Of a stretch of 64,000 nt of DNA, positions 3,297 through 58,363 are shown one piece after another. Within the stretch, counting starts at the first letter, position 1. Each line of letters starts with the position of its first letter. The notes beneath the pieces are model-generated. The model was not told the DNA's origin. It did not search any database and was given only the letters and a program-made list of their open reading frames with translations. The position numbers and the translations under genes were made by a program. Source of the stretch: Eledone cirrhosa (taxonomy: Eukaryota); the NCBI GenBank assembly GCA_964016885.1, contig OZ024747.1, forward strand, positions 8,122,001 to 8,186,000, read 5' to 3'.

Positions 3297-3480
3297 ATCA
3301 AATTTAATATAGAAATGGCTTCTACAGGACTAGAATTGTTTCATTAAAAAAAAAAAAAAAAATCATCATGAAACAGTTCTAGTCCTGTAGAAGCCATTTC
3401 TATATTAGACTTGATGTTTACACTCTACTAATGTATTGAGTACCTTACTAACTGTGGTTACCCCCACTTGAACCCGGGAC
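3297..3480 (+). mobile_element. Fold-back copy of the hammerhead-associated family also at 61880-62015 and 63655-63826
   Basis: 40-bp inverted arms at 3305-3344 and 3368-3407; tail gtattgagtaccttac...tgtggttaccc...ttgaacc shared by all three copies. Confidence 0.75.
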
Positions 3481-3503
3481 TATACACACACACATATATA
3501 TAT

Positions 3504-3700
3504 ATAGGAACGAGTAGGACCCCGACAGCTGAGCTCAAGCCGTTTCGACGGCTAATTCTGGACTCAGAATTAGCCGTCGAAACGGCTTGAGCTCAGCCGT
3601 CGGGGTCCTACTCGTTCCTATTACCCACTCTACTACCATAAGTATTGAGTACTTTGGTGCGTTATGGTCCACCTGGTTCCTTACCACATTTCCTTCGTTA
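3504..3700 (+). mobile_element. GC-rich 57-bp-arm palindrome containing a hammerhead 3' half, plus family tail
   Basis: Arms 3504-3560 and 3565-3621 (1 mismatch); GAAA-cggct(tgagctc)agccG-TC. Homologous pieces at 18838-18947 and about 55525-55590(-). Confidence 0.7.
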
Positions 3701-4285: not shown

Positions 4286-4966
4286 ACCAGCACTATCACT
4301 TTATAAAGTGTAGTGGGTGCATTTTACTGCACCACCAGCACTATCACTTTGTAAAGTGTAGTGGGTGCATTTTACTGCACCACCAGCACTATCACTTTGT
4401 AAAGTGTAGTGGGTGCATTTTACTGCACCACCAGCACTATCACTTTGTAAAGTGTAGTGGGTGCATTTTACTGCACCACCAGCACTATCACTTTGTAAAG
4501 TGTAGTGGGTGCATTTTACTGCACCACCAGCACTATCACTTTGTAAAGTGTAGTGGGTGCATTTTACTGCACCACCAGCACTATCACTTTGTAAAGTGTA
4601 GTGGGTGCATTTTACTGCACCACCAGCACTATCACTTTGTAAAGTGTAGTGGGTGCATTTTACTGCACCACCAGCACTATCACTTTGTAAAGTGTAGTGG
4701 GTGCATTTTACTGCACCACCAGCACTATCACTTTATAAAGTGTAGTGGGTGCATTTTACTGCACCACCAGCACTATCACTTTGTAAAGTGTAGTGGGTGC
4801 ATTTTACTGCACCACCAGCACTATCACTTTGTAAAGTGTAGTGGGTGCATTTTACTGCACCACCAGCACTATCACTTTATAAAGTGTAGTGGGTGCATTT
4901 TACTGCACCACCAGCACTATCACTTTGTAAAGTGTAGTGGGTGCATTTTACTGCACCACCAGCACT
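4286..4966 (+). repeat. 48-bp minisatellite, about 14 copies
   Basis: Unit accagcactatcactttRtaaagtgtagtgggtgcattttactgcacc; the lines starting at 4321, 4561 and 4801 are identical (5 x 48). Confidence 0.97.
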
Positions 4967-9650: not shown

Positions 9651-10194
9651 CAGCAAGCACAAATATGCATACATATATGTATGGATGTATTACTATAAAG
9701 ACCCTTTGGAGGAACCCTATTTCAGCTGCTTGTATTTGTCATCATATTCTTTGAATCCAAAATGTCAGAACAAATACCAAAATGTATTTTACCCTATTCT
9801 CAAATATCAATAATGTAAGCACCAGACAGATGAAGTACCGCAAGATTCACTCAATCAACTTGAAGATGGTGCTTCAGCATGGCCATAGTCCAATGAGAGA
9901 AATCAACAGAGAATAAAAATATAGGAATAAAAGAATGTTATTCACATAATAATTGTTTCTACTTTTGGCACAAGGCCAGCAATTACCCAGTGCATTACTG
10001 GTACTTTATTTTATCGACCCTGTAAGGATGAAAGGCAAAGTTAACCTCGGCGGGATTTGAATTCAGAATGACAAGGGCCACAACTATATGCGTCAAAGCA
10101 TGGTGTCCGACTCCCTACTATTATTCACATAATGATGTAATGATGTTGTTGTCCTCGTAATCTATGATGAGCATATCTATATCTGAGCAATATT

Positions 10195-11448
10195 CTGTGT
10201 ACATCTTGTTTAGAATAGGTACACTGTATCTCTGTGTACATATTGTTTAGAAGAGGTACACTGTATCTCTGTACATCTTGTTTAGAAGAGGTACACTGTA
10301 TCTCTGTGTACATCTTGTTTAGAAGAGGTACACTGTATCTCTGTGTATATCTTGTTTAGAAGAGGTACACTGTATCTCTGTGTATATCTTGTTTAGAAGA
10401 GGTACACTGTATCTCTGTGTATATCTTGTTTAGAAGAGGTACACTGTATCCCTGTATATATCTTGTTTAGAAGAGGTACACTGTATCTCTGTGTATATCT
10501 TGTTTAGAAGAGGTACACTGTATCTCTGTGTACATCTTGTTTAGAATAGGTACACTGTATCTCTGTGTACATCTTGTTTAGAAGAGGTACACTGTATCTC
10601 TGTGTACATCTTGTTTAGAAGAGGTACACTGTATCCCTGTCTATATCTTGTTTAGAAGAGGTACACTGTATCCCTGTATATATCTTGTTTAGAAGAGGTA
10701 CACTGTATCTCTATATATCTTGTTTAGAATACGTACACTGTATCTCTGTGTACATCTTGTTTAGAATAGGTACACTGTATCTCTGTGTATATCTTGTTTA
10801 GAAGAGGTACACTGTATCTCTATATATCTTGTTTAGAAGAGGTACACTGTATCTCTGTATATCTTGTTTAGAAGAGGTACACTGTATCTCTGTATATATC
10901 TTGTTTAGAATACGTACACTGTATCTCTGTGTACATATTGTTTAGAAGAGGTACACTGTATCTCTGTGTACATCTTGTTTAGAAGAGGTACACTGTATCT
11001 CTGTGTATCTCTTGTTTAGAAGAGGTACACTGTATCCCTGTATATATCTTGTTTAGAATAGGTACACTGTATCTCTGTGTACATCTTGTTTAGAAGAGGT
11101 ACACTGTATCTCTGTGTACATCTTGTTTAGAAGAGGTACACTGTATCTCTGTGTACATCTTGTTTAGAATAGGTACACTGTATCTCTGTGTACATCTTGT
11201 TTAGAATACGTACACTGTATCTCTGTGTACATATTGTTTAGAAGAGGTACACTGTATCTCTGTGTACATCTTGTTTAGAAAAGGTACACTGTATCTCTGT
11301 GTACATCTTGTTTAGAAGAGGTACACTGTATCTCTGTGTACATCTTGTTTAGAAGAGGTACACTGTATCTCTGTGTACATATTGTTTAGAAGAGGTACAC
11401 TGTATCTCTGTGTACATCTTGTTTAGAAGAGGTACACTGCATCTCCGT
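10195..11448 (+). repeat. 37-bp minisatellite, about 34 copies
   Basis: Unit tacatcttgtttagaagaggtacactgtatctctgtg, with 35-bp variants. Confidence 0.97.
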
Positions 11449-12008
11449 GTGTGTCCAGTATAGAGTAGGTTGGGTTCAAATCCTGGTGAGGTTAACTTTG
11501 TCTTTCATCCTTACGGGGGTCGATAAAATAAAGTACCAGTAATGCACTGGGGATGATTTAATCGACTTTCCCTTCCACCCAAAATTGTTGGCTTTGTGCA
11601 TAAATCAAAAACTATTATTTACATTACTAAATTACTTCAATTTCTTGATTATTTAAAAAATTAATTGAAAATTAATTGAAAATCATAGACAGTGTCTTTC
11701 ATTAGAAATATGTTAATGAAAAGTTTAATTTTGTTTTGAAATTTACAGCCATATAATTTTAAATGTTTTCTATCTTACTCTTTCTACACTCCAGCTTTGA
11801 TCAATAACCCAGATTACAGTTTTCATTGTCATCCATCATCCAATCAAAAACAAGCTTTGTATCACATGACCTAACCGATTGATCTAGAACACAGTTTCTT
11901 GAATCAAGCTTAATTCAAAACTGAGACAGGATTCTGTTTTATTTTATTTTTAAATTCTTTTTTTTTTTTGCATAAATAAAGAGAATGTCTGAGAATAGCC
12001 AATTTCTT

Positions 12009-18554: not shown

Positions 18555-18620
18555 ATATGTGTATATATATATATATTTAGAAAGAGCGATGAAGTTTCGT
18601 TTATATGTTTTTATTGATTA

Positions 18621-18724
18621 TTGACCTGTTACGTACATTTCACAGATGATTGGCTCAAGGTCGCCTATGGATGCTATAGAGCCAACCCTAGCACCAATCT
18701 GCTCAACAGACTTCATGAGTCAAC
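18621..18724 (-). ncRNA. Degenerate hammerhead motif with long branched stem II
   Basis: Minus strand: CTGTTGA (core A>T), gcagat...atctgt, GAAA, tgtacg, TA. Stem I is poor near the core, with distal ttgac/gtcaa pairing. Confidence 0.45.
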
Positions 18725-19078
18725 AAAACCAAAGTATGTTTGAGGTGATTGTTAAAAACTTCATCTATACACTAAGCATTGAGTGGTCATATTGGTACTA
18801 CCACCAGCAAATCACCCAATCACCTATACTATATATATAACAAAGAGGGTGTGGTAAGATACCAGGTGGACCATAATGGTGGCTTAGTTCAGATCTAGCT
18901 GTCGAAACAGGCGAAGCTCAGCTGTCGGGGTCTTGACTCTTTTCCTATATATATATGTTGGTATTTAAACGTTAGTTATAGCTCTGGTTTATCCAAACTA
19001 TTGAGCACTTTGCCACACATTTCGAAGATTGTGTTTCGTTATTTCATGGGCCGAGGTTCCGATTCTCGATAATTTATT

Positions 19079-19114
<36 letters not shown>

Positions 19115-19117
19115 ATA

Positions 19118-19350
19118 TGCCCCCACCCCCTCCCACTGTAAAGTGGACGTGTAGGCGCCACGGAAAAAAAGCACTCAACACTCACTGTAAATGAGGTTGG
19201 TGTTAGGAAGGGCATCCAGCTGTAGAAATCAAGCCAGAATCAGTTCCTGTATGAGCAAGACAAGGTCAGCCGACTGGACACTGCCCACAACAGGACAACC
19301 AGTCTAACCCATGCTAGCGTGGAAGAATGGACGTAAAAAGATGATGATGA
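19118..19350 (+). mobile_element. 5'-truncated SINE A-related subfamily with longer RTE-like tail (second copy at 695-920)
   Basis: Shares the ggttggtgttaggaagggcatccagctgtagaa segment, then ctaacccatgctagcgtggaa...(gat)n. Confidence 0.75.
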
Positions 19351-19479
19351 TATTTATATATATAAGTAAAGAGATATTTAATTTGCTGGTAATTCAACAA
19401 ATTTATTTATAACAGGTTCGAAGCACTCGACAGGTTTCCTGGAGTATCGGGTATGTCACTATTTATAAAACAAATTTTG

Positions 19480-19544
19480 TATTTTATCTGATGAGAGCGT
19501 ACCAAAGTTTTTTTTGGTACCCTTGAAATATATATAATAAAATA
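19480..19544 (+). ncRNA. Type I minimal hammerhead ribozyme motif
   Basis: Stem I tattttat/ataaaata; CTGATGA 19488-94; stem II containing gtaccaaa/tttggtac; GAAA 19525-28; palindromic stem III tatata; AUA cleavage triplet. Confidence 0.75.
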
Positions 19545-19587
19545 AATATGGTTTTATAAATATAGTTTCCATTTATTAATATCATTG

Positions 19588-19631
<44 letters not shown>

Positions 19632-19809
19632 TTATAGCAGTAGAGGATCTACCATGAGTTTGACAATTTTGTCTAGTTACCAAAAGAGGTAACTAACCAA
19701 AACTGCTGAGCTCTCAGTATATCTTCTATTTTTACTAGTATAACCACTCTGCATCTTACCACGTATTGAGTATTTCTTTTATTTGTTGTCTTCCTGGTAT
19801 CAATACCAT

Positions 19810-19843
<34 letters not shown>

Positions 19844-20093
19844 CTTGAATGAGCCATGGTGTCCAAATCCTGATTTGAAAGACTTCGCCACTTGGTGTTG
19901 TCATGCTATGACCTGGGCCAATAATGGCTGAAACCTATCAAAGTTATATATATATATATATATATATATGAAGGAGGTGAGTTTTATTGTAGTACAATAA
20001 AGCAATGCAGATATCGGATAAGAAGCACTCTACAGTTTGTAGGACTGGAGTATGCATAATATAAGATCAAAAGATGGTTAAAGGAGTTCCATG

Positions 20094-20164
20094 TATTTTA
20101 TAATGCGCATTTCAAAAACAAACATCATCATGCAATAATATTTGTGTTTTCATCAGATAAAACA
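20094..20164 (-). ncRNA. Hammerhead ribozyme motif, mirror copy (left arm of palindrome)
   Basis: Reverse complement of 20266-20336; the cleavage triplet reads AUU in this copy. Confidence 0.65.
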
Positions 20165-20265
20165 GGAGGACATGATATGAAGGCTAAAAAACACTTGTGG
20201 ATAGTGCAGTTTTAAATCAACTGCACTATCCACAAGTGTTTTTTAGCCTTCATATCATGTTCTCC

Positions 20266-20336
20266 TGTTTTATCTGATGAAAACACAAATATTATTGCAT
20301 GATGATGTTTGTTTTTGAAATGCGCATAATAAAATA
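20266..20336 (+). ncRNA. Type I minimal hammerhead ribozyme motif (right arm of palindrome)
   Basis: Stem I tgttttat/ataaaata; CTGATGA 20274-80; long stem II; GAAA 20317-20; palindromic stem III tgcgca; AUA triplet. Confidence 0.78.
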
Positions 20337-20460
20337 TATGGAACTCCTTTAACCATCTTTTGATCTTATATTATGCATACTCCAGTCCTACAAACTGTAG
20401 AGTGCTTCTTATCCGATATCTGCATTGCTTTATTGTACTACAATAAAACTCACCTCCTAC

Positions 20461-20512
<52 letters not shown>

Positions 20513-20624
20513 AATTAAAATACTAGAGTGCGTTGGAATAAAACACACTCGTCGTATTGTAGAAATGACAGTATAAGATATAGCTCAATGTAATACAACA
20601 GAGCCGAAAAATGCTTCTTGTCAA

Positions 20625-20679
20625 TTTACTTGCCCTGATGAGTCCTTATTAATGGGACGAAACATTGTAGGCTAATAAA
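20625..20679 (+). ncRNA. Type I hammerhead ribozyme motif with fully canonical core
   Basis: gcc-CTGATGA-gtcct(tattaat)gggac-GAAA-c(att)GTA-ggc. G10.1-C11.1 pair, GUA cleavage site, stem I gcc/ggc extended by ttta/taaa. Confidence 0.85.
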
Positions 20680-20729
20680 GACTTTTGATGTATTGAAGGC
20701 TTCTTTGTTTATTTTTATAATTTTTATAA

Positions 20730-20790
20730 TATATATATATATATATATTTGAAAGCAGCCTGGGCCAATAATGGCTGAAACCTATCAAAG

Positions 20791-20836
<46 letters not shown>

Positions 20837-20897
20837 CTTTGATAGGTTTCAGCCATTATTGGCCCAGGCTGCTTTCAAATATATATATATATATATA
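20730..20897. repeat. Palindrome with 46-bp unique arms around a (TA)n centre
   Basis: tttgaaagcagcctgggccaataatggctgaaacctatcaaagtta at 20748-20793 is inverted at 20834-20879; a third partial copy lies at 19912-19945. Confidence 0.85.
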
Positions 20898-21995
20898 TGT
20901 ATATATATTTGAAAGCAGGTGGTTTATTGGTCAGAGTGTTCAGCTCACAACTGTAAAGCTGTTTGATTCTCAGCTCATCATGTCCTTGAGCAAGATACTT
21001 TACTTCACATTGTTCCAGTCCATTCAGCTAGTAAACATGAGTTGCACCTGTAATTCAAGGAGCCAGCCTTGTTACATATTATATCCCGCTGAATCTCTCT
21101 GAAAGCTATGTTAAGGGTTTACCTGCCTGAGCTATGCTCTGACACTTGCATGAGCTAGGAGTTCTGTTGATTGAAGGAACTGGAGAACTCGCTTTTGAAA
21201 ATGACAAAGATTCAATACACAGAAACATATGTAACACCCACTCACACACACATCAAAGAACATTTGAAGCTTGATGCAGTTACACCCCTCCCCCCTCCCA
21301 CCAAAATAGATACAAATGCTTCAAGACAGGTGTATAATCTTTACTGTATAAGTAATTAAACTTTGTGTAAACAAATCTGATATTTGCAGAACACATAAAC
21401 AATGGTTTCTGATTTAGGCACAAGGCCAACAATTTTTGGGGGAGGGGAAAAAGTCGATTAAATTAACCCCAGTGCATTACTGGTACATTATTTTATCAGC
21501 CCTCATAAGGATGAAAGGCAAAGCTATCCTTGGTGGGATTTGAACTCAGAACATAAAGTGATGTAACTATATGCTACAAAGCATGTTGTCTGATGCTCTA
21601 CTGGTTCTGCCTTTCCGCTGCAGAGTACATAAATAATTGTTTCTACTTTTGGCAATTATCCCAGTGCATTACTGGTACTTTACTTTATCGACCCCGTAAG
21701 GATGAAAGGCAAAGTTAACCTCGACAGGATTTCAACTCAGACCATGATAGATAGAAAACCAAAATGAAGAAATATATTTTCTTACACATGTTTCAAGGAT
21801 GAAAAAAGGAAATGTTGACAAACTTGCTCAAGCTCCATTACTAATATACAGAGATTTTTCTATATGTTATAATCTGAGCATTGACTTTAATCAGCCCTTA
21901 ACCATTCACTTCACTCAATCCTATATCTTCAGAAACTTAATAAAATATACAAAAATATATAGAAACAAACTATTTCAAGAAAAAAAAATCATCCA

Positions 21996-23089: not shown

Positions 23090-25825
23090 GATTTCCCGGA
23101 AAGCACTCAAAGGAGCTGTTTATGGTTTTTGTTGATTTGATCAAAGCGTATGACTCCTTGCCAATTACAAATCTCTCTGGAGAATCCTTAAAAAGCTTGG
23201 CACACCTGACAATATGCTGAATATCATCATGTCTTTTCATGGAGACATGAAAACATCAATTATGTCATATGATGAATGGTCTGAATCCTTTGATGTTACA
23301 AACAATACGAAGCAGGGTTGTATCATGGACCCTGTTCTCTTCGCTTTGATTTTCTCTGTAATGCTCCAGTATGTATTTCTGACAAAATTAGACACTGGTG
23401 TCATATTTCAATTTCATACATCAGGTGGGTTATTCAACTATCAGTGCTTGCCTGTAAGGTGTTTGGTTTAACAATCAGTATTAAGAAGACTGAGGTGGTA
23501 CATCAACTTCTCACTTGCTTGTAAGGTGTTTGGTTTAACAATCAGTATTAAGAAGACTGAGGCAGTACATCAACTTCTCACTTGCCTGTAAGGTGTTTGG
23601 TTTAACAATCAGTATTAAGAAGACTGAGGCAGTACATCAACTTCTCACTTGCCTGTAAGGTGTTTGGTTTAACAATCAGTATTAAGAAGACTGAGGCGGT
23701 ACATCAACTTCTCACTTGCCTGTAAGGTGTTTGGTTTAACAATCAGTATTAAGAAGACTGAGGCGGTACATCAACTTCTCACTTGCTTGTAAGGTGTTTG
23801 GTTTAACAATCAGTATTAAGAAGACTGAGGCAGTACATCAACTTCTCACTTGCTTGTAAGGTGTTTGGTTTAACAATCAGTATTAAGAAGACTGAGGCAG
23901 TACATCAACTTCTCACTTGCTTGTAAGGTGTTTGGTTTAACAATCAGTATTAAGAAGACTGAGGCGGTACATCAACTTCTCACTTGCTTGTAAGGTGTTT
24001 GGTTTAACAATCAGTATTAAGAAGACTGAGGCAGTACATCAACTTCTCACTTGCTTGTAAGGTGTTTGGTTTAACAATCAGTATTAAGAAGACTGAGGCA
24101 GTACATCAACTTCTCACTTGCTTGTAAGGTGTTTGGTTTAACAATCAGTATTAAGAAGACTGAGGCGGTACATCAACTTCTCACTTGCTTGTAAGGTGTT
24201 TGGTTTAACAATCAGTATTAAGAAGACTGAGGCAGTACATCAACTTCTCACTTGCTTGTAAGGTGTTTGGTTTAACAATCAGTATTAAGAAGACTGAGGC
24301 AGTACATCAACTTCTCACTTGCTTGTAAGGTGTTTGGTTTAACAATCAGTATTAAGAAGACTGAGGTGGTACATCAACTTCTCACTTGCCTGTAAGGTGT
24401 TTGGTTTAACAATCAGTATTAAGAAGACTGAGGCGGTACATCAACTTCTCACTTGCCTGTAAGGTGTTTGGTTTAACAATCAGTATTAAGAAGACTGAGG
24501 TGGTACATCAACTTCTCACTTGCCTGTAAGGTGTTTGGTTTAACAATCAGTATTAAGAAGACTGAGGCGGTACATCAACTTCTCACTTGCCTGTAAGGTG
24601 TTTGGTTTAACAATCAGTATTAAGAAGACTGAGGCGGTACATCAACTTCTCACTTGCCTGTAAGGTGTTTGGTTTAACAATCAGTATTAAGAAGACTGAG
24701 GCAGTACATCAACTTCTCACTTGCCTGTAAGGTGTTTGGTTTAACAATCAGTATTAAGAAGACTGAGGCAGTACATCAACTTCTCACTTGCCTGTAAGGT
24801 GTTTGGTTTAACAATCAGTATTAAGAAGACTGAGGCAGTACATCAACTTCTCACTTGCTTGTAAGGTGTTTGGTTTAACAATCAGTATTAAGAAGACTGA
24901 GGCGGTACATCAACTTCTCACTTGCCTGTAAGGTGTTTGGTTTAACAATCAGTATTAAGAAGACTGAGGCAGTACATCAACTTCTCACTTGCTTGTAAGG
25001 TGTTTGGTTTAACAATCAGTATTAAGAAGACTGAGGCAGTACATCAACTTCTCACTTGCCTGTAAGGTGTTTGGTTTAACAATCAGTATTAAGAAGACTG
25101 AGGCAGTACATCAACTTCTCACTTGCCTGTAAGGTGTTTGGTTTAACAATCAGTATTAAGAAGACTGAGGCAGTACATCAACTTCTCACTTGCCTGTAAG
25201 GTGTTTGGTTTAACAATCAGTATTAAGAAGACTGAGGCAGTACATCAACTTCTCACTTGCCTGTAAGGTGTTTGGTTTAACAATCAGTATTAAGAAGACT
25301 GAGGCAGTACATCAACTTCTCACTTGCCTGTAAGGTGTTTGGTTTAACAATCAGTATTAAGAAGACTGAGGCAGTACATCAACTTCTCACTTGCCTGTAA
25401 GGTGTTTGGTTTAACAATCAGTATTAAGAAGACTGAGGCAGTACATCAACTTCTCACTTGCCTGTAAGGTGTTTGGTTTAACAATCAGTATTAAGAAGAC
25501 TGAGGCAGTACATCAACTTCTCACTTGCTTGTAAGGTGTTTGGTTTAACAATCAGTATTAAGAAGACTGAGGCGGTACATCAACCGAAGTCTCCCCACAA
25601 CAAGTAAAAGATGTTGAGCAGGAATAGCTGGAGCACGGCATCCCATATTTTTATCACTTTTGATAGTAAGGATCTGAAGTATGTGAACTCCTTTACTTAC
25701 CTTGGCAGTAAGGTGAATCCCTCTGCATCCCTAGATGATGAGATCATCAATCATATCTCCAAATCAACTTATGCCTTAGGCAAACTACATCATCATCTGT
25801 GGGATGTCAGAGAGATATCCCTAGC
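23090..25825 (+). mobile_element. RTE-clade LINE reverse transcriptase remnant interrupted by a 67-bp minisatellite
   Basis: Frame fragments LFMVFVDLIKAYDS, TKQGCIMDPVLF, GGLFN, ACKVFGLTISIKKTEV and FTYLGS..SLDDEI..ISK...LGKL...LW; the YADD region is missing. Confidence 0.88.
23447..25585 (+). repeat. 67-bp minisatellite, about 32 near-identical copies
   Basis: Unit cttgcYtgtaaggtgtttggtttaacaatcagtattaagaagactgaggYRgtacatcaacttctca; period 67 (23461 to 23528). Confidence 0.97.
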
Positions 25826-29022: not shown

Positions 29023-29660
29023 AGCTTGGAGATCAGAGTCACTCCAGGTAGAGCTGCTACCTCTCCAAATTGAGAGATCACAGCTCTGATATTACAGACA
29101 TGTGGTTAGCTACTTGATAGAGTATGAAGCTTGGAGATCAGGAAGTCACTCCAGTAGAGTCGCTACCTCTCCAAATTGAGAGATCACAGCTCTGATATTA
29201 CAGACATGTGGTTAGCTACTTGATAGAGTATGAAGCTTGGAGATCAGGAAGTCACTCCAGGTAGAGCCGCTACTTCTCCAAATTGAGAGATCACAGCTCT
29301 GATATTACAGACATGTGGTTAGCTACTTGATAGAGTATGAAGCTTGGAGATCAGAGTCACTCCAGGTAGAGCCGCTACTTCTCCAAATTGAGAGATCACA
29401 GCTCTGATATTACAGACATGTGGTTAGAATATCTCAGGAAAGAATTGCTGGCCAGATTTAGACCCCGGGGAAGATGGTTGGATAATATCCATGAGCTTGC
29501 CTGGTCTTGCTTGGACATTGAGCAAGATTAATTGGAGACAGCTGCTTCTTACAGGACCTGCTGGAAGGAGTGTTTGCAGACTCTGCCCCAATGACCTTCC
29601 CAAGAAGACGAAGAAGAAGGGGAAGAAGAAGACGAAGAACACGAAGAAGAAGAAGACTAA
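29023..29660 (+). mobile_element. RTE (Rex3/Expander-like) LINE 3' fragment with a 105-107-bp internal tandem repeat (about 3.8 copies) and (GAA)n tail
   Basis: The repeat translates SLEIRKSLQVEPLLLQIERSQL*YYRHVV. It is followed by RPRGRWLDNIHELAWSCL...LPQ*P and a GAA-rich tail. Confidence 0.8.
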
Positions 29661-30740: not shown

Positions 30741-31310
<570 letters not shown>

Positions 31311-38491: not shown

Positions 38492-39412
38492 TATGAGGTG
38501 TGTCAGAAAAGTTCCAGGACTGATGTCACAAAAGATTTATTTCAAACCCAAACTTCACACTAGGAGTTTTCTCCCTCAAAGTAATCCCCCTGGAGTCTAA
38601 TGCACTTTTCCATCCTTTTCTGCCATGCTTGCATGCACTCCTGGAAGGATTCTTCTGGGATCCTCCGCAGTTCCGCCGTCATGGCCTTTTTGATGTCGTC
38701 CACGTCTTCAAAACGGGTCCCCTCCAGGTCATACTCGAAGATCCATGACTCATCACCGGTGATGACTGTCCCTAGCAAATCTGGTTTGGTTTCAAGACGC
38801 TCGAGGATGTCCTGGCACACTTGCATGCGTCGACCCTTCTGGTCATCGTTCAGCAGTTTTGGCACCATCTTCGCACAGACTTTCTGCATGTCCAAATCTT
38901 CAGTGAGAATCTTCCAGACGCTGTCCCGATTCATGCCCAGCTCATTTGCCATCAGTTGAACAGTCGGCCGACGATCGCTACGCACCATCTTCCTGACGCG
39001 CTCAACGTTGACCTCAGTCCTGGTTGTTGAGGGCCTTCCGCTCCTGGGGTCATCTTCCACATCCTCGCGTCCTTCTTTAAACCTCTTGCACCACTCAAAA
39101 ACACGTGAGCGTGACATCGTCTCATCTCCATACCCTTGCTACAGCAATCCCAGTGCTTCTGACAGAGTTTTCCCCAACCGTACCAGAAACTTCAAGGTTG
39201 TTTGTTGCTCTGTGCTCATTGTTTGACGACCTGAAACAGAGGACATGTATATAAAATTATGAAGAAAAAAGTTTGATCGCTGCAGAGAGCTAAGATTACA
39301 GTTACATACTCCAGGGGGATTACTTTGAAGGAGAAAACTCTTAGTGTGAAGTTTGGGTTTGAAATAAATCTTTTGTGACATCAGTCCTGGAACTTTTCTG
39401 ACATACCTCATA
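38492..39412 (-). mobile_element. Mariner (Tc1/mariner) transposon, internally deleted, 105-bp TIRs, TA target
   Basis: TIRs 38492-38596 and 39308-39412 start TATGAGG, flanked by TA. Transposase motifs VFEWCKRF, DDPRSGRP, MVPKLL, ITGDESW and GDYFEG. Confidence 0.95.
38560..39219 (-). pseudogene. Mariner transposase pseudogene
   Basis: ATG at 39219 and in-frame TAG at 39139-41. An in-frame deletion joins WIFEYD to LEGTRF and removes the second and third catalytic Asp regions (HDNA, YSPDL). Confidence 0.92.
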
Positions 39413-55501: not shown

Positions 55502-55817
55502 AAATCAGGATGGATTCAGTTTGAAACTGGTTAGATCATTACGCAACAGAGTACTCAATAATTGGGGTAGTAGAGTATGGTTATATTATAGGCAGTTATC
55601 CCTCACTCTGATGCTACAGGCTGTCAACCTTTCAATATTCATAGCTAGGCTTTCAAAATGTTTATTTTTTAAACATACTGCATATCTTTAGATATACGAA
55701 ATTCACATACATATATATATACAGTTATGTTGAAACTAGATTTTAATATATATATGTGTATATATATATAGAGAAAACTGAATGAGATTTTGGTGATTAA
55801 TATAATTCATAACTTAC

Positions 55818-58196
55818 CTGAGTTGATGTTGGAATACTTTTTGGTGTTGTCAAAGTTGTCCATTCAACAGGTAGTTCCTGCTCTGGACAGAAATTCCTTC
55901 TAGATCTCATTGATGGTGTACTGTGATGAACCCCTTCATCAGGGTTCTGTGATATTGCAAAAGGATTGTTACTTTGAGATATCATTAAACATTTTTCTCT
56001 TCCTTGTTGCATGGCTGGATTCATTGCTGCTGTATGTAACATAGTTCTCCTTCTGTTACATCTCACTATACATATTGTTATTGTAACAACTATAGCAATA
56101 GATATCACTACAGCTGTAACAACTATGATAATTACTAAGTTGATATCTATCATGTCACTAGACTGGATGTGAGCAGCTGTCAACATTGGAGATGTTCTAT
56201 TGCTGACAGTTAATGTTAAAGATAGAGTGGTAGTTGCTGACAGCACTGGGCTGCCACTGTCTTTCACAACTAACAGCAGGTTGTAGGAACCAGCATCATT
56301 TTGGTAAACTTTCCGAGCAAATGACAGAACTCCGGTGTATGGATTTACAGTAAATAATTGGTGGGTTTTTCTATCAAGCATTTCATATTTAAGAAAAGCA
56401 TTTTCCCGACTGTCTCTGTCTGAAGCTCTCAGAACTGTGATGTCATTCTTACTTTGAGGGTGATAGTGAACATCCAGACTGAAAGGGTTAACACTAGGGA
56501 AGGTGAAATATGGAGCATTGTCATTCTCATCCATGACTTCAACAATAACATTTGCTGTACTGTTTAGAGAAGGAGATCCATTATCCTTGACTAAAACCTG
56601 GAATCTATATATATCTTGTCGTTCTCTGTCTAAAGACCTTATAGTTGAAATGAAACCATAGTCTGTAATCTGAAAAGGTAATATATGATTGTTATTATCT
56701 ATTATGAAATATGTTAGTTGGCCTCCAGCTCCTAAATCCAAATCTGTAGCATTGATAAATCCAACTGGAAAATTGGATTTTTCATTTTCGTAAGTAAGAA
56801 ATTTAAATGTTTCCTTGGTAAATCTAGGCTGTACATCATTGACATCCATTACTTGGATAGAAAACTTGCTCTCTGTCTTCAAAGATGGCGAACCTTTGTC
56901 ACGACAGATAATTGAAATATTATAGTTACTTTCTGTCTCTCTGTCAACTATGTTTTTCATCAGCACCTTGTATTCTTTGGAACTTATCTTTAACAACTGA
57001 AATTTATCACTTTTTAGATCACACGTTACTTCACCATTCAGTCCAACATCGTTGTCAATAACACTGACATAGGCAATAAAACTGCCAACTTTGATTCTCT
57101 CTGAAATGGCAGCTGTATTCTTTTTTAATGCAGAAACAAAATTGACATCAATTTCTGGTGCTCTGTTCTGTTGGTTGATCACATTGACAAGAACCAAAAC
57201 TATAGAACTGAGAGGAGGGGTACCTTTGTCTGTTGCTTCCACAAAAAGTTTATATTTTCGTGTCTGTGTAACTGGAAAAACATTCAAGAAGAATATTTCA
57301 CCTGTAATGTTATTCAACAGAAAACTAGTTTTTACAATGTCTGACGTTTTAGAACTAAAGTGGTAAATAACTTCTCCATTATCACCAGAATCTAAATCTG
57401 TTGCAGATAAAATGGTAATTGGTGATGCTCTATGATGGGTGTTCTTTATGGAAACATTATAGATATCTTTTGAAAAAATAGGTGGATTGTCATTGACATC
57501 AATTACCGATATTTCGATACTTAAGATTCCTTGCTGAGAGGGAAAACCTCCATCTTCTGCTACTAGTTGTAAATAGTAACTGTCTTTTGATTCTCTGTCT
57601 AGTCTTTCATCTAAACTAATCCGAAGTTTGGAAGTACCATCCACTTTCTTAGACACTGATAATCGGAATGGTTCATTGTCGTGTTTTTTCAAACGATATG
57701 CAATTTTGGAATTTAAAATTCCTACATCTTTATCAACAGCATTTGGAATTGACTTAGCTGTACCTTTGCCATGACTTTCATCAAAAAGGAGTTTGATCTG
57801 TTTTACAGGGAACTTTGGTTGATGGTCATTAACATCTTCAATTGTTACTTTAATTTTAAGAATTTTGATAAATGTTTCTGCTTGCTTGACGGCAATTTTA
57901 ATTGTTCTGAAACATTCCATACTATAAGAACATAATGATTCAGCATCAAGTTTCTGTGAAGTGAAAAGTTTACCAGACTTTGAAATATTGAATAGCTGAG
58001 CTGTTTCTTTCTGGCTGAATTGGTTAAACGTTATGAGATTGTGATCTTGAGATGAGACACTATTTAGAAGCTGTGAGTCTGCTGCAATGTCTCCTATGTA
58101 TGTTGATGGACTTTTCTCTTCCTGGACATGGTATGCAAGATCAACACACATGCAGCTAGGAAGAAATAAACACAATATATATACCAGCACTAGCAT
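55818..58196 (-). CDS. Pcdh: Protocadherin, large first coding exon (signal peptide, EC1-EC6, TM, start of cytoplasmic tail)
   Basis: 799-aa ORF with hydrophobic signal peptide. Cadherin motifs LDAE/LDRE/VDRE, DVNDHQP, DVNDNPP, DVNDVQP, DENDNAP and AxDxGxPxL. TM segment INLVIIIVVTAVVISIAIVVTITICIV. Donor CAG|GTAAGT at 55818 (phase 0). Acceptor ttctattttcag ends at 58247, 50 nt upstream of the ATG. Paralog identity cannot be assigned. Confidence 0.96.
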
Positions 58197-58363
58197 ATTC
58201 CCTCTTATGTCTGTTTCACTTTAGAAGCTGAAGCATTCAAATAATTCTGAAAATAGAACAAAATAATTACATTTTAATATAACAGAAAAAAAGGAATATA
58301 TATATTTATATATTTATTCACATTATTTTTTCAATTAATTATTTTAATATAACAGGAGAAAGG

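Follow-up and report, generated by a model that had tools for sequence, protein, structure and literature searches.

A probable pile-up of Hydra-type Penelope-like element ends, with hammerhead motifs, in TA repeats of Eledone cirrhosa

Positions 18570-20900 of a 64,000-nucleotide stretch of Eledone cirrhosa DNA (the window) consist of 11 modules from nine repeat families, parted by (TA)n tracts; the initial annotation had counted about eight. We consider it highly probable that this region is a pile-up of end-pieces from at least five Hydra-type Penelope-like element (PLE) families, together with LINE ends and one unassigned repeat, and that the pieces were likely written in by target-primed reverse transcription. 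Judged by sequence, five of the modules (M1, M2, M5, M8 and M9) are truncated, inverted pLTR ends of PLEs.

The hammerhead motifs in these modules are genuine, yet they do not constitute a new non-coding system, and the locus itself is ordinary retroelement debris. The hammerheads are likely passengers in the pLTRs and not cooperating members of a chain. The end and start patterns of related copies suggest that the pieces were likely copied from capped RNA in which the predicted hammerhead was uncut.

Modules and hammerhead motifs

The modules, and one related feature outside the main region, are as follows.

M1, 18577..18825, minus strand: old Hydra-type pLTR end of family C (18579-18756, minus), plus an inverted tail (18782-18824)
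M2, 18839..18947, plus strand: inverted tail piece (18839-18876), then a family D hammerhead reduced to its 3' half
M3, 18957..19081, plus strand: fixed 3' end of a young, non-coding repeat; units are about 600 bp long and often form partial tandems
M4, 19111..19352, plus strand: LINE 3' end with a (GAT)n tail; many copies in the window and in loci
M5, 19363..19588, plus strand: Hydra-type family A2, inverted tail (19363-19447), then a 5'-truncated pLTR (19439-19588)
M6, 19637..19815, plus strand: old family F, a fold-back of two truncated arms, then a tail with a start-site hairpin
M7, 19844..19945, plus strand: LINE 3' UTR with a short repeat tail
M8, 19968..20462, no single strand: family A1 mirror-image pLTR arms (19968-20211 minus, 20219-20462 plus)
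M9, 20511..20730, plus strand: Hydra-type family B, inverted tail (20511-20612), then a truncated pLTR (20610-20730)
M10/M11, 20750..20879, no single strand: a pair of inverted copies of the M7 LINE end, 44 nt each, flanking (TA)22
Outside the main region, 30774..31100, no single strand: two family A3 pLTRs in mirror arrangement, both with an intact hammerhead

Four intact cores with correct flanking helices had been described. This holds for the motifs at 19480-19544(+) in M5, where the predicted cut follows position 19536, and at 20094-20164(-) and 20266-20336(+) in the two arms of M8. The intact-core hammerhead of M9 (20625-20679) fits less well: at 20626-20679(+) the core, helix II and helix III are intact, but helix I consists of 3 bp plus a bulge, which is why our strict descriptor missed this motif. 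The descriptor scan found the order expected of type I hammerheads (core, three helices and NUH site). It returned three matches in 18570-20900 and none in all 2000 dinucleotide shuffles.

The stems of the motifs had also been read as covarying and not simply copied. However, the motifs at 20094(-) and 20266(+) belong to opposite arms of a single insertion, leaving three. M8 is a single 244-bp inverted repeat whose arms are 98% complementary, and therefore the agreement within this pair reflects copying, not covariation. Any transcript crossing it is predicted to fold into a 244-bp hairpin.

The identification of these motifs as type I minimal hammerheads of Penelope-like pLTRs, lying inside TA tracts, is borne out, as is the expectation that the modules are multi-copy: the family A motif has 34,706 exact matches (control 0). 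Helix I has 8 of 8 pairs in 119/131 copies and helix III is self-complementary in 122/131, proportions that the search patterns themselves set in part. In families A and C, helix III is an 8-nt palindrome; in D it is a 5-bp stem with a palindromic loop. An Rfam scan, proposed earlier as a check, found no family at gathering score either in the window or in three loci. An E-value scan of the window gave one weak Hammerhead_3 match at 20626-20679 (21.7 bits, E 0.22, against a gathering score of 48.5) and otherwise only TA-driven miRNA noise.

The remaining candidate motifs fared differently. The degenerate motif at 18621(-) is indeed a decayed copy: the M1 hammerhead (about 18621-18716) has one altered core position and a palindromic helix III. 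There are 1184 candidate relatives, the best of which are 73-87% identical, and relatives of this family mostly retain an intact core. The partial motif at 18895-18930(+) is the 3' half of a complete hammerhead from another family, D, with M2 holding the 3' strand of helix II, GAAA, helix III, the cut site and the 3' strand of helix I at 18898-18932. The family D hammerhead has a U3-A8 core and a helix III of 5 bp or longer, and folds as a monomer in silico. A motif search for it gave 309 exact matches (control 0). Across family D the helices are 91% paired, and two pairs show double changes.

By contrast, 19845-19945(+), formerly listed as a degenerate or partial hammerhead, is a LINE 3' end: 18/19 relatives of M7 lack a core ahead of GAAA. 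The end of an RT ORF lies upstream in these relatives, with weak RVT_1 matches in the upstream frames (atlas 0.95), and we take the element to be CR1/L2-like from its motifs. M10/M11 are 100% identical to M7 across 34 nt and are probably a local fold-back copy. Nor does either strand of 18957-19081 (M3) or 19111-19352 (M4) have a hammerhead core. M4 presumably terminates an RTE-type LINE that shares its 3' part with a tRNA-headed SINE, as judged from motifs and the sequence upstream of relatives. M3 is 98-100% identical to its relatives in 40/40 matches among those listed, and no linked ORF was found in the loci of those relatives. A hammerhead or permuted hammerhead was also considered for it and gained no support: one CTGATGA of the family unit lies in a plain hairpin with no GAAA after it.

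M6 holds just the 3' half of a D-like hammerhead, with its GAAA decayed. This partial hammerhead within 19637-19815 was overlooked previously, as was the A3 mirror pair, whose hammerheads lie at 30817-30883(-) and 30991-31057(+) and whose plus arm begins at an initiator-like site at 30935.

The modules vary widely in age, from about 78% to 99% identity to their own families. The chain mixes both strands and includes LINE and SINE ends, and its PLE pieces are single or mirror-image arms. Nine families lie within 3.1 kb here, compared with at most five in 183 other loci, although the repeat library was built from this very locus. A protocadherin exon is also present in the window.

ORF-bearing relatives

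As the initial annotation stated, no RT or GIY-YIG ORF is present locally (none of 150 aa or more in the 64-kb window). It proposed several non-coding, ribozyme-bearing families mobilized in trans, and a search for longer copies with RT and GIY-YIG ORFs. Such ORF-linked copies were found for families A1, A2, B, C and D. Thus, the families of all five PLE modules have their own ORFs elsewhere in the genome, contrary to the proposed retrozyme system. For family F (M6), no ORF link appeared among the loci examined.

Beside M8-type hammerheads, frames of 738-821 aa occur in pLTR-ORF-pLTR and inverted arrangements, and M8 itself is 94-98% identical to the pLTRs of the full-length elements at L032 and L041. 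At L041 and L153, same-strand hammerheads flank the ORF on both sides. Family B is represented by pLTR-ORF-pLTR copies (L153, L154) whose ORF is 43% identical to the protein P0001, family A2 by ORF pieces 41-59% identical to P0001 (L186, L187, L191), and family C by N-terminal Hydra ORF pieces following the pLTR (L106, L118). The A1 ORFs are about 800 aa long with an Asn-rich linker. Among the matches listed, 50/56 best ORF matches lack a stop, with identities of 93-100%.

By their motifs, these ORFs appear to be of the Hydra-clade PLE type, with an RT followed by a C-terminal GIY-YIG nuclease. The clade is defined by a set of RW, DKT, CxCx5C, CxxC and CxH features (PMC8557442). P0001 and 35 aligned relatives retain RW, DKT, YRDD, CxCx5C, Y..Y-G, CxxC and CxH. 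RW is kept at the N-terminus with a variable third residue (RWI, RWT and RWR in this genome; RWK is commonest among relatives). DKT stands in place of DKG in P0001 (132-136) and in family B, with D and K in 34/34 rows and T in 28/34. All three cysteines of the CxCx5C linker, which is found beside A1, B and D, occur in 33-34 of the 33-34 rows with letters, and the conserved nuclease residues E and N are framed by CxxC and CxH in 31/31 such rows. Atlas neighbours of the ORF protein carry GIY-YIG and RVT_1, and a Pfam GIY-YIG match was obtained for 3/36 aligned proteins. P0001 matched no Pfam family, four full-length ORFs likewise had no meaningful one, and PDB sequence searches with P0001 matched no solved structure. 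A named homolog of the PLE ORF is from Argonauta; like the protocadherin exon, it agrees with the cephalopod host of the initial annotation.

Insertion ends and a possible copying route

A TA tract follows the end within 30 nt in 51/63 A1, 34/56 A2, 26/45 B and 47/72 D copies (background 8%; overlapping loci unmerged). TA flanks are not Penelope-specific, because TA follows 28/37 LINE and 33/46 SINE ends, frequencies much like that of the A1 pLTR.

Each PLE family has two fixed 3' ends, and insertions contain mirror-image arms. A long end is paired with a short one in 27/30 two-armed A1 insertions and in 16/16 further ones (43/46 together). The junctions of mirror pairs vary, such that each hairpin arose anew. 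M8 is exceptional in having two long ends, and its arms begin inside the start site, by 5 and 15 nt. Among the A1 insertions counted, which were selected for an intact motif or start, no arm ends where the hammerhead is predicted to cut, a point 132 nt from the long end.

A fixed 5' start is observed in families A1 and A3. In A1, 18/62 arms begin 63-64 nt ahead of the hammerhead anchor. G occupies the position just before the start in 42/100 A1 and 45/100 A3 copies, whereas a control site lying 6 nt further downstream has G before it in 16/100 (for A3, Fisher p 1.3e-5). This excess is the expectation for run-off at a cap. By hand check of 30 A1 junctions with flanks, about 6 of 16 G residues are clearly untemplated. 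The exact M5 subfamily has just eight copies at the matching start, three of them with G, a weak hot spot, and none is evident for B or D in the loci examined. A1 boundaries also pile up at 326-340 nt, where the reference diverges and the sequence is of low complexity. Literature searches returned no paper that describes a G derived from the cap, or maps a start, in Hydra-clade or cephalopod PLEs; Repbase, Dfam or the PMC13282606 repeat library may hold the families.

These patterns may reflect the following route. The element RNA would start at the initiator-like site inside the upstream pLTR and be capped. The RT-nuclease would nick both strands within (TA)n, and each strand would then prime at one of two internal sites, 79 nt apart in A1, just downstream of the hammerhead. 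Priming on the first pLTR of the RNA would copy 176 or 255 nt through the uncut hammerhead to run-off at the cap, which would often add G, and the two cDNAs would be joined head to head. Such joining would give rise to hairpins and to pieces consisting of an inverted tail plus a pLTR. Every insertion would leave TA on both sides, so that the spot would remain a target.

We see roughly even chances that the tens of thousands of hammerhead hairpins are a fossil record of PLE copying by this route, with capped RNA, dual-strand priming at two fixed sites, an uncut hammerhead and cap run-off. If so, the promoter, the cap and the two RT start sites of a young Hydra element with an intact ORF can be read directly from its insertions, and head-to-head pLTRs would need no antisense template. 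The ribozyme would be bypassed in most insertions, and the monomer-folding U3-A8 hammerhead of family D would offer a natural control.

Mirror arms could instead come from self-priming on an antisense transcript, an idea put forward for rotifer PLEs (PMC3846280), or from fold-back repair of DNA, the 5' boundary being a palindrome or microhomology hot spot and not a capped start. The A1 boundary does lie within a short palindrome, many junction G residues fit the partner arm and could be templated by it, and M8 and M10/M11 resemble fold-backs. However, the A3 boundary lies in no palindrome; there is a TATA-like box at -33, and the G excess is the same, whereas a nearby palindromic control site has none. 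A simple fold-back also would not yield arms that differ in their 3' ends, as nearly all pairs do. We hold this alternative to be rather unlikely.

That the modules are independent non-coding retrozymes, which are transcribed, excised by their hammerheads, circularized and re-inserted in trans, is improbable. Solo pieces do far outnumber ORF-bearing copies, and DNA-type contigs cover the pLTR end several hundred times as deeply as the ORF start (a figure that is not a copy number). Moreover, retrozymes are described as derived from pLTRs (bioRxiv 10.64898/2026.07.22.740005), and M3 belongs to a partial-tandem non-coding family. However, the arms in 18570-20900 never form a head-to-tail tandem with a hammerhead per unit, relatives of M5, M8 and M9 are solo, inverted or ORF-linked, every hammerhead family tested bar F has an ORF-linked copy, no counted A1 arm stops where the ribozyme would cleave, and mirror arms are predicted to fold into long double strands. 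A functional chain, in which several hammerheads would work as dimers to process a read-through RNA, is scarcely credible: three intact cores do lie on the plus strand within 1.2 kb of an unusually family-rich locus, but the helix III strands of 19480 and 20266, tried as a heterodimer, do not pair with each other (+1.7 kcal/mol), the 20266 motif would be buried in the M8 hairpin, and the modules are of disparate ages with LINE ends intermixed.

Comparison with known systems

The Hydra clade has been catalogued (Craig et al. 2021, PMC8557442), and one of its members comes from an octopus: Hydra-1_Obim of Octopus bimaculoides, which targets (TA)n and carries a hammerhead. The present families are absent from the Hydra table of that paper. 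The likeness is close: a single ORF with RT then GIY-YIG and the clade's motif set, a hammerhead close to the 3' end, insertion into (TA)n, copies that are inverted and 5'-truncated, and a tail at one end only. The scale differs, in that PMC8557442 reports few families and gives Hydra-1_Obim as 'no pLTR but 4 copies', whereas the present genome has five families or more, with pLTR copies in the tens of thousands and numerous open ORFs. The Hydra-1_Obim hammerhead differs by eye from those described here, tails are 75-100 nt here and 30-40 nt in published Hydra elements, the A1 ORFs are longer, and the U3-A8 core of family D occurs in none of the Hydra hammerheads listed in that source.

Metazoan PLE hammerheads (Cervera and de la Pena 2014, PMC4209133) are likewise of type I, with a short palindromic helix III and one additional nucleotide at the foot of helix II. 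Solo motifs are scattered by the thousands, opposite-strand pairs lie 100-700 bp apart, and the U3-A8 core variant occurs, there in Schistosoma. The helix III forms of families A, C and D set the present motifs apart, and cephalopods are not named in the accessible portion of that work. Metazoan non-LTR retrozymes (PMC7229834; bioRxiv 10.64898/2026.07.22.740005) also carry type I hammerheads in short, non-coding, pLTR-related repeats. However, they form head-to-tail tandems with a hammerhead per unit and circular RNA, unlike the single or inverted arms of ORF-bearing families found here.

In vitro, the RT of Poseidon_Ac starts internally at two sites and uses uncut RNA (Frangieh et al. 2024, PMC11167929). 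As in the route proposed here, the two internal starts define the tail, both target strands are extended, targets are AT-rich and the template is uncut. Poseidon_Ac belongs to another clade, though, and its starts lie inside the ORF rather than upstream of it; the genomic cap signature and the pairing of long and short ends are seen here and are not reported for it in the available text. Full-length and twin-primed L1 insertions (PMC11702581) share the cap-derived extra 5' G and inverted pieces formed by dual-strand priming. L1, however, primes at the poly(A) end and its second primer needs target-RNA microhomology, whereas two fixed internal starts appear to be used here.

In this animal genome of 3 Gb, Hydra-clade elements, known from a handful of consensus sequences, are among the abundant repeats and have amplified recently, yet they escape Pfam and Rfam cut-offs. 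The origin of the tandem and inverted ends of PLEs and the role of their hammerheads are stated as open questions in PMC8557442 and PMC11167929. To these, the fixed start, the excess G and the paired long and short ends supply exact, testable coordinates.

Modules and hammerhead motifs

The region at 18570-20900 had been described as about eight modules set between (TA)n tracts. TA-separated modules are indeed present, but there are 11 of them. Every module searched by DNA against the genome (candidates below, 40 scored for each) proved to be repeated rather than single-copy; M4 and M8 were compared within the window and fetched loci.

18577-18825: M1 (family C), 1184 candidates
18839-18947: M2 (family D), 1573 candidates
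18957-19081: M3, 1531 candidates
19111-19352: M4
19363-19588: M5 (family A2), 1916 candidates
19637-19815: M6 (family F), 192 candidates
19844-19945: M7, 1323 candidates
19968-20462: M8 (family A1)
20511-20730: M9 (family B), 1976 candidates
20750-20879: M10 and M11

A strict type I descriptor detects hammerheads at 19480(+), 20094(-) and 20266(+), compared with 0 in 2000 shuffles of the region, and yields 5 matches in the whole window versus 0-1 in 40 shuffles. At 20626(+), a motif with an intact core and a short helix I is detected solely as a weak Rfam match; no motif in the window reaches the Rfam gathering score. All four cores proposed in the initial annotation are intact. However, 20094 and 20266 are the arms of a single 244-bp inverted repeat (98% complementary), and therefore are one motif present as two copies, not motifs with differing stems. 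The motifs of the region occupy both strands and differ in age. A pattern for the 19480/20266 type has 34,706 exact matches in the 3.0-Gb genome; its reversed control has 0.

Among 131 family A motifs from the fetched loci, whose helix I was in part set by the search pattern, 122 have a self-complementary helix III. Its four middle bases are variable, with three main forms, and helix II differs in sequence and length between subfamilies. In monomers, the hammerhead fold lies ~4 kcal/mol above the best predicted fold, and an 8-bp helix III homoduplex is computed to be possible. These energies are in line with the dimer model described in PMC4209133, where minimal motifs of this type are said to cleave weakly. 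The helix III strands of the two plus-strand A motifs (19480 and 20266) are computed to be unable to pair with each other.

Family D has 309 exact pattern matches in the genome. Its cores (n = 30) carry U3-A8 in 25 cases, U3-G8 in 3 and C3-A8 in 2; U3-A8 has a precedent in Schistosoma (PMC4209133). A three-way junction is the best predicted fold of the one copy folded. In the alignment, whose structure was drawn from the same sequences, 91% of cells are paired and two helix II pairs are altered on both sides.

Paired 3' ends and a fixed 5' start

M1, M2, M5 and M9 each consist of an inverted "tail" joined to a truncated pLTR, the pseudo-LTR end of a Penelope-like element (PLE); in their full-length relatives, the tail is directly 3' of the pLTR. 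M6 is built like M2, but no ORF link was found for it. A further family D insertion, an inverted tail plus pLTR end followed by a short forward arm, lies at ~3450-3700. In A1 there are two 3' end sites, separated by 79 nt. Of 30 two-armed (mirror-image) A1 insertions, 27 combine a long with a short end, leaving out 11 single-arm or open cases; the exceptions are loci L033 and L035 and the window's M8. The same holds for 16 of 16 further insertions, a count that leaves out 6 rows for loci already counted, 6 single-arm insertions and 1 ambiguous row, and takes one double-listed insertion once. M5, M6 and M8 each have a small bulged hairpin 3' of the short end. A tail at only one end has been described for PLEs (PMC8557442, PMC3846280), and Poseidon_Ac in vitro shows two internal RT start sites, extension of both strands and use of uncut RNA (PMC11167929).

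Among first matches on one contig (C1), 18 of 62 A1 arms begin 63-64 nt ahead of the hammerhead anchor, at a pyrimidine-C|A step whose A is the start site. A3 arms start at a similar step and have a TATA-like box at position -33; one A3 pair lies in the window.

30774-31100, both arms: mirror pair of family A3 pLTRs, hammerheads intact; the plus arm begins at the initiator-like site

Genome-wide, 3,847 A1 copies lack the genomic C ahead of the start-site A, as do 321 A3 copies versus 960 that read through. By hand count of the 100 matches listed for each, the base before the start is G in 42 (A1), 45 (A3) and 16 (a control site 6 nt downstream, about a third of whose 146 matches are point mutants); the excess at the A3 start over the control has p 1.3e-5. 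In family A2 copies (L186, L187, L001, L285), an octamer-like ATTTGCAT motif occurs ~50 nt before the initiator-like site.

An additional G at the 5' junction marks cap copying in L1 (PMC11702581), Penelope transcription starts inside the upstream pLTR (PMC2377424), and rotifer pLTRs carry TATA and initiator motifs (PMC3846280). A literature search found no earlier description of a cap signature for these elements. Counter to a cap origin, many junction G bases could derive from the partner arm, although about 6 of 16 in A1 clearly could not be supplied by it, and the M5 subfamily has only 8 matches at the corresponding start, 3 with G. Because arms from the fixed start run across the predicted cut site, where no arm that was read ends, their template was likely RNA uncut by the predicted ribozyme.

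Modules without a hammerhead and the wider window

The degenerate hammerhead proposed at 19845-19945 can be discarded: M7 is a LINE 3' end, since its relatives have a LINE RT frame ending upstream and 18 of 19 lack a core ahead of GAAA. Their terminus is a short repeat. M10 and M11 are inverted copies of the last 34 nt of M7 with window-specific changes, and thus are probably local copies. A perfect 85-bp inverted repeat at 20729-20898, made up of a LINE end, TA and a 10-nt match to the right flank, is a local fold-back or an assembly artefact. M4 we read, by its motifs, as a 3' terminus belonging to an RTE-like LINE and shared with a tRNA-headed SINE. M3 is the fixed 3' end, in TA, of a young non-coding repeat of ~600 bp with partial tandems. 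The window piece has no canonical hammerhead core, and no linked ORF was found at its family's loci (L159, L229-L253); the family is possibly a non-autonomous Penelope-type element.

TA follows pLTR, LINE and SINE ends alike, far above background. At least two of the families occur together within 3.1 kb at 91 of 183 other loci, with a maximum of five versus nine here, the library having been built from this locus itself. The locus is a rich but ordinary pile-up. Other features of the window are as follows.

4286-4966: homogeneous minisatellite array, 48-bp unit
10194-11450: homogeneous minisatellite array, 37-bp unit
23447-25584: homogeneous minisatellite array, 67-bp unit
29023-29427: homogeneous minisatellite array, 106-bp unit
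38560-39138, minus strand: Tc1/mariner transposase remnant, HTH domains
55797-58220, minus strand: protocadherin exon, one open frame of 807 aa that encodes five cadherin repeats, an N-terminal Cadherin_2 domain and a transmembrane stretch

Coleoid cephalopods typically have protocadherins in clusters.

Parent elements and their clade

The initial annotation favored non-coding families, perhaps retrozymes, mobilized in trans, and suggested looking for longer copies joined to PLE ORFs. Such copies exist for M1, M2, M5, M8 and M9. Among 12 stretches around spaced hammerhead matches, L032, L040, L041 and L042 contain frames of 738-821 aa; L041 reads pLTR-ORF-pLTR on one strand, and M8 is 94-98% identical to the pLTRs of the full-length elements L032 and L041. 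Related ORF pieces are also found next to the pLTRs of M5 (L186, L187, L191; 41-59% identity to P0001, the full-length A1 protein), M9 (L153, L154; 43%), M1 (L106, L118) and M2 (4 of 30 loci). These associations identify the five modules as end pieces of autonomous-type families. Of the best 56 genomic ORF matches, 50 lack a stop at 93-100% identity, a sign of recent amplification. Beside TA tracts at L154:7740-8501 and L245:1901-3304 lie RT frames that belong to a further Penelope-type lineage, with a DKS-type motif.

Database support for a Hydra-type ORF is thin. A Pfam search with P0001 gave no match, and 3 of 36 aligned members match GIY-YIG in Pfam; protein atlas neighbors carry GIY-YIG and RVT_1. 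The 37 homologs share 28-41% identity, and the one named is from Argonauta hians. P0001 itself has RW, DKT, RT motifs with YRDD, a CxCx5C linker, a GIY-YIG-like nuclease and CxxC/CxH, all conserved in the 36-sequence alignment.

Craig et al. (PMC8557442) use this set of motifs to define the Hydra clade, for which they also describe (TA)n insertion and hammerheads. On these sequence comparisons, we consider the region to be fragments of new members of this previously known clade of PLEs rather than a retrozyme system; the Hydra table of Craig et al. lists a member from Octopus bimaculoides, Hydra-1_Obim.
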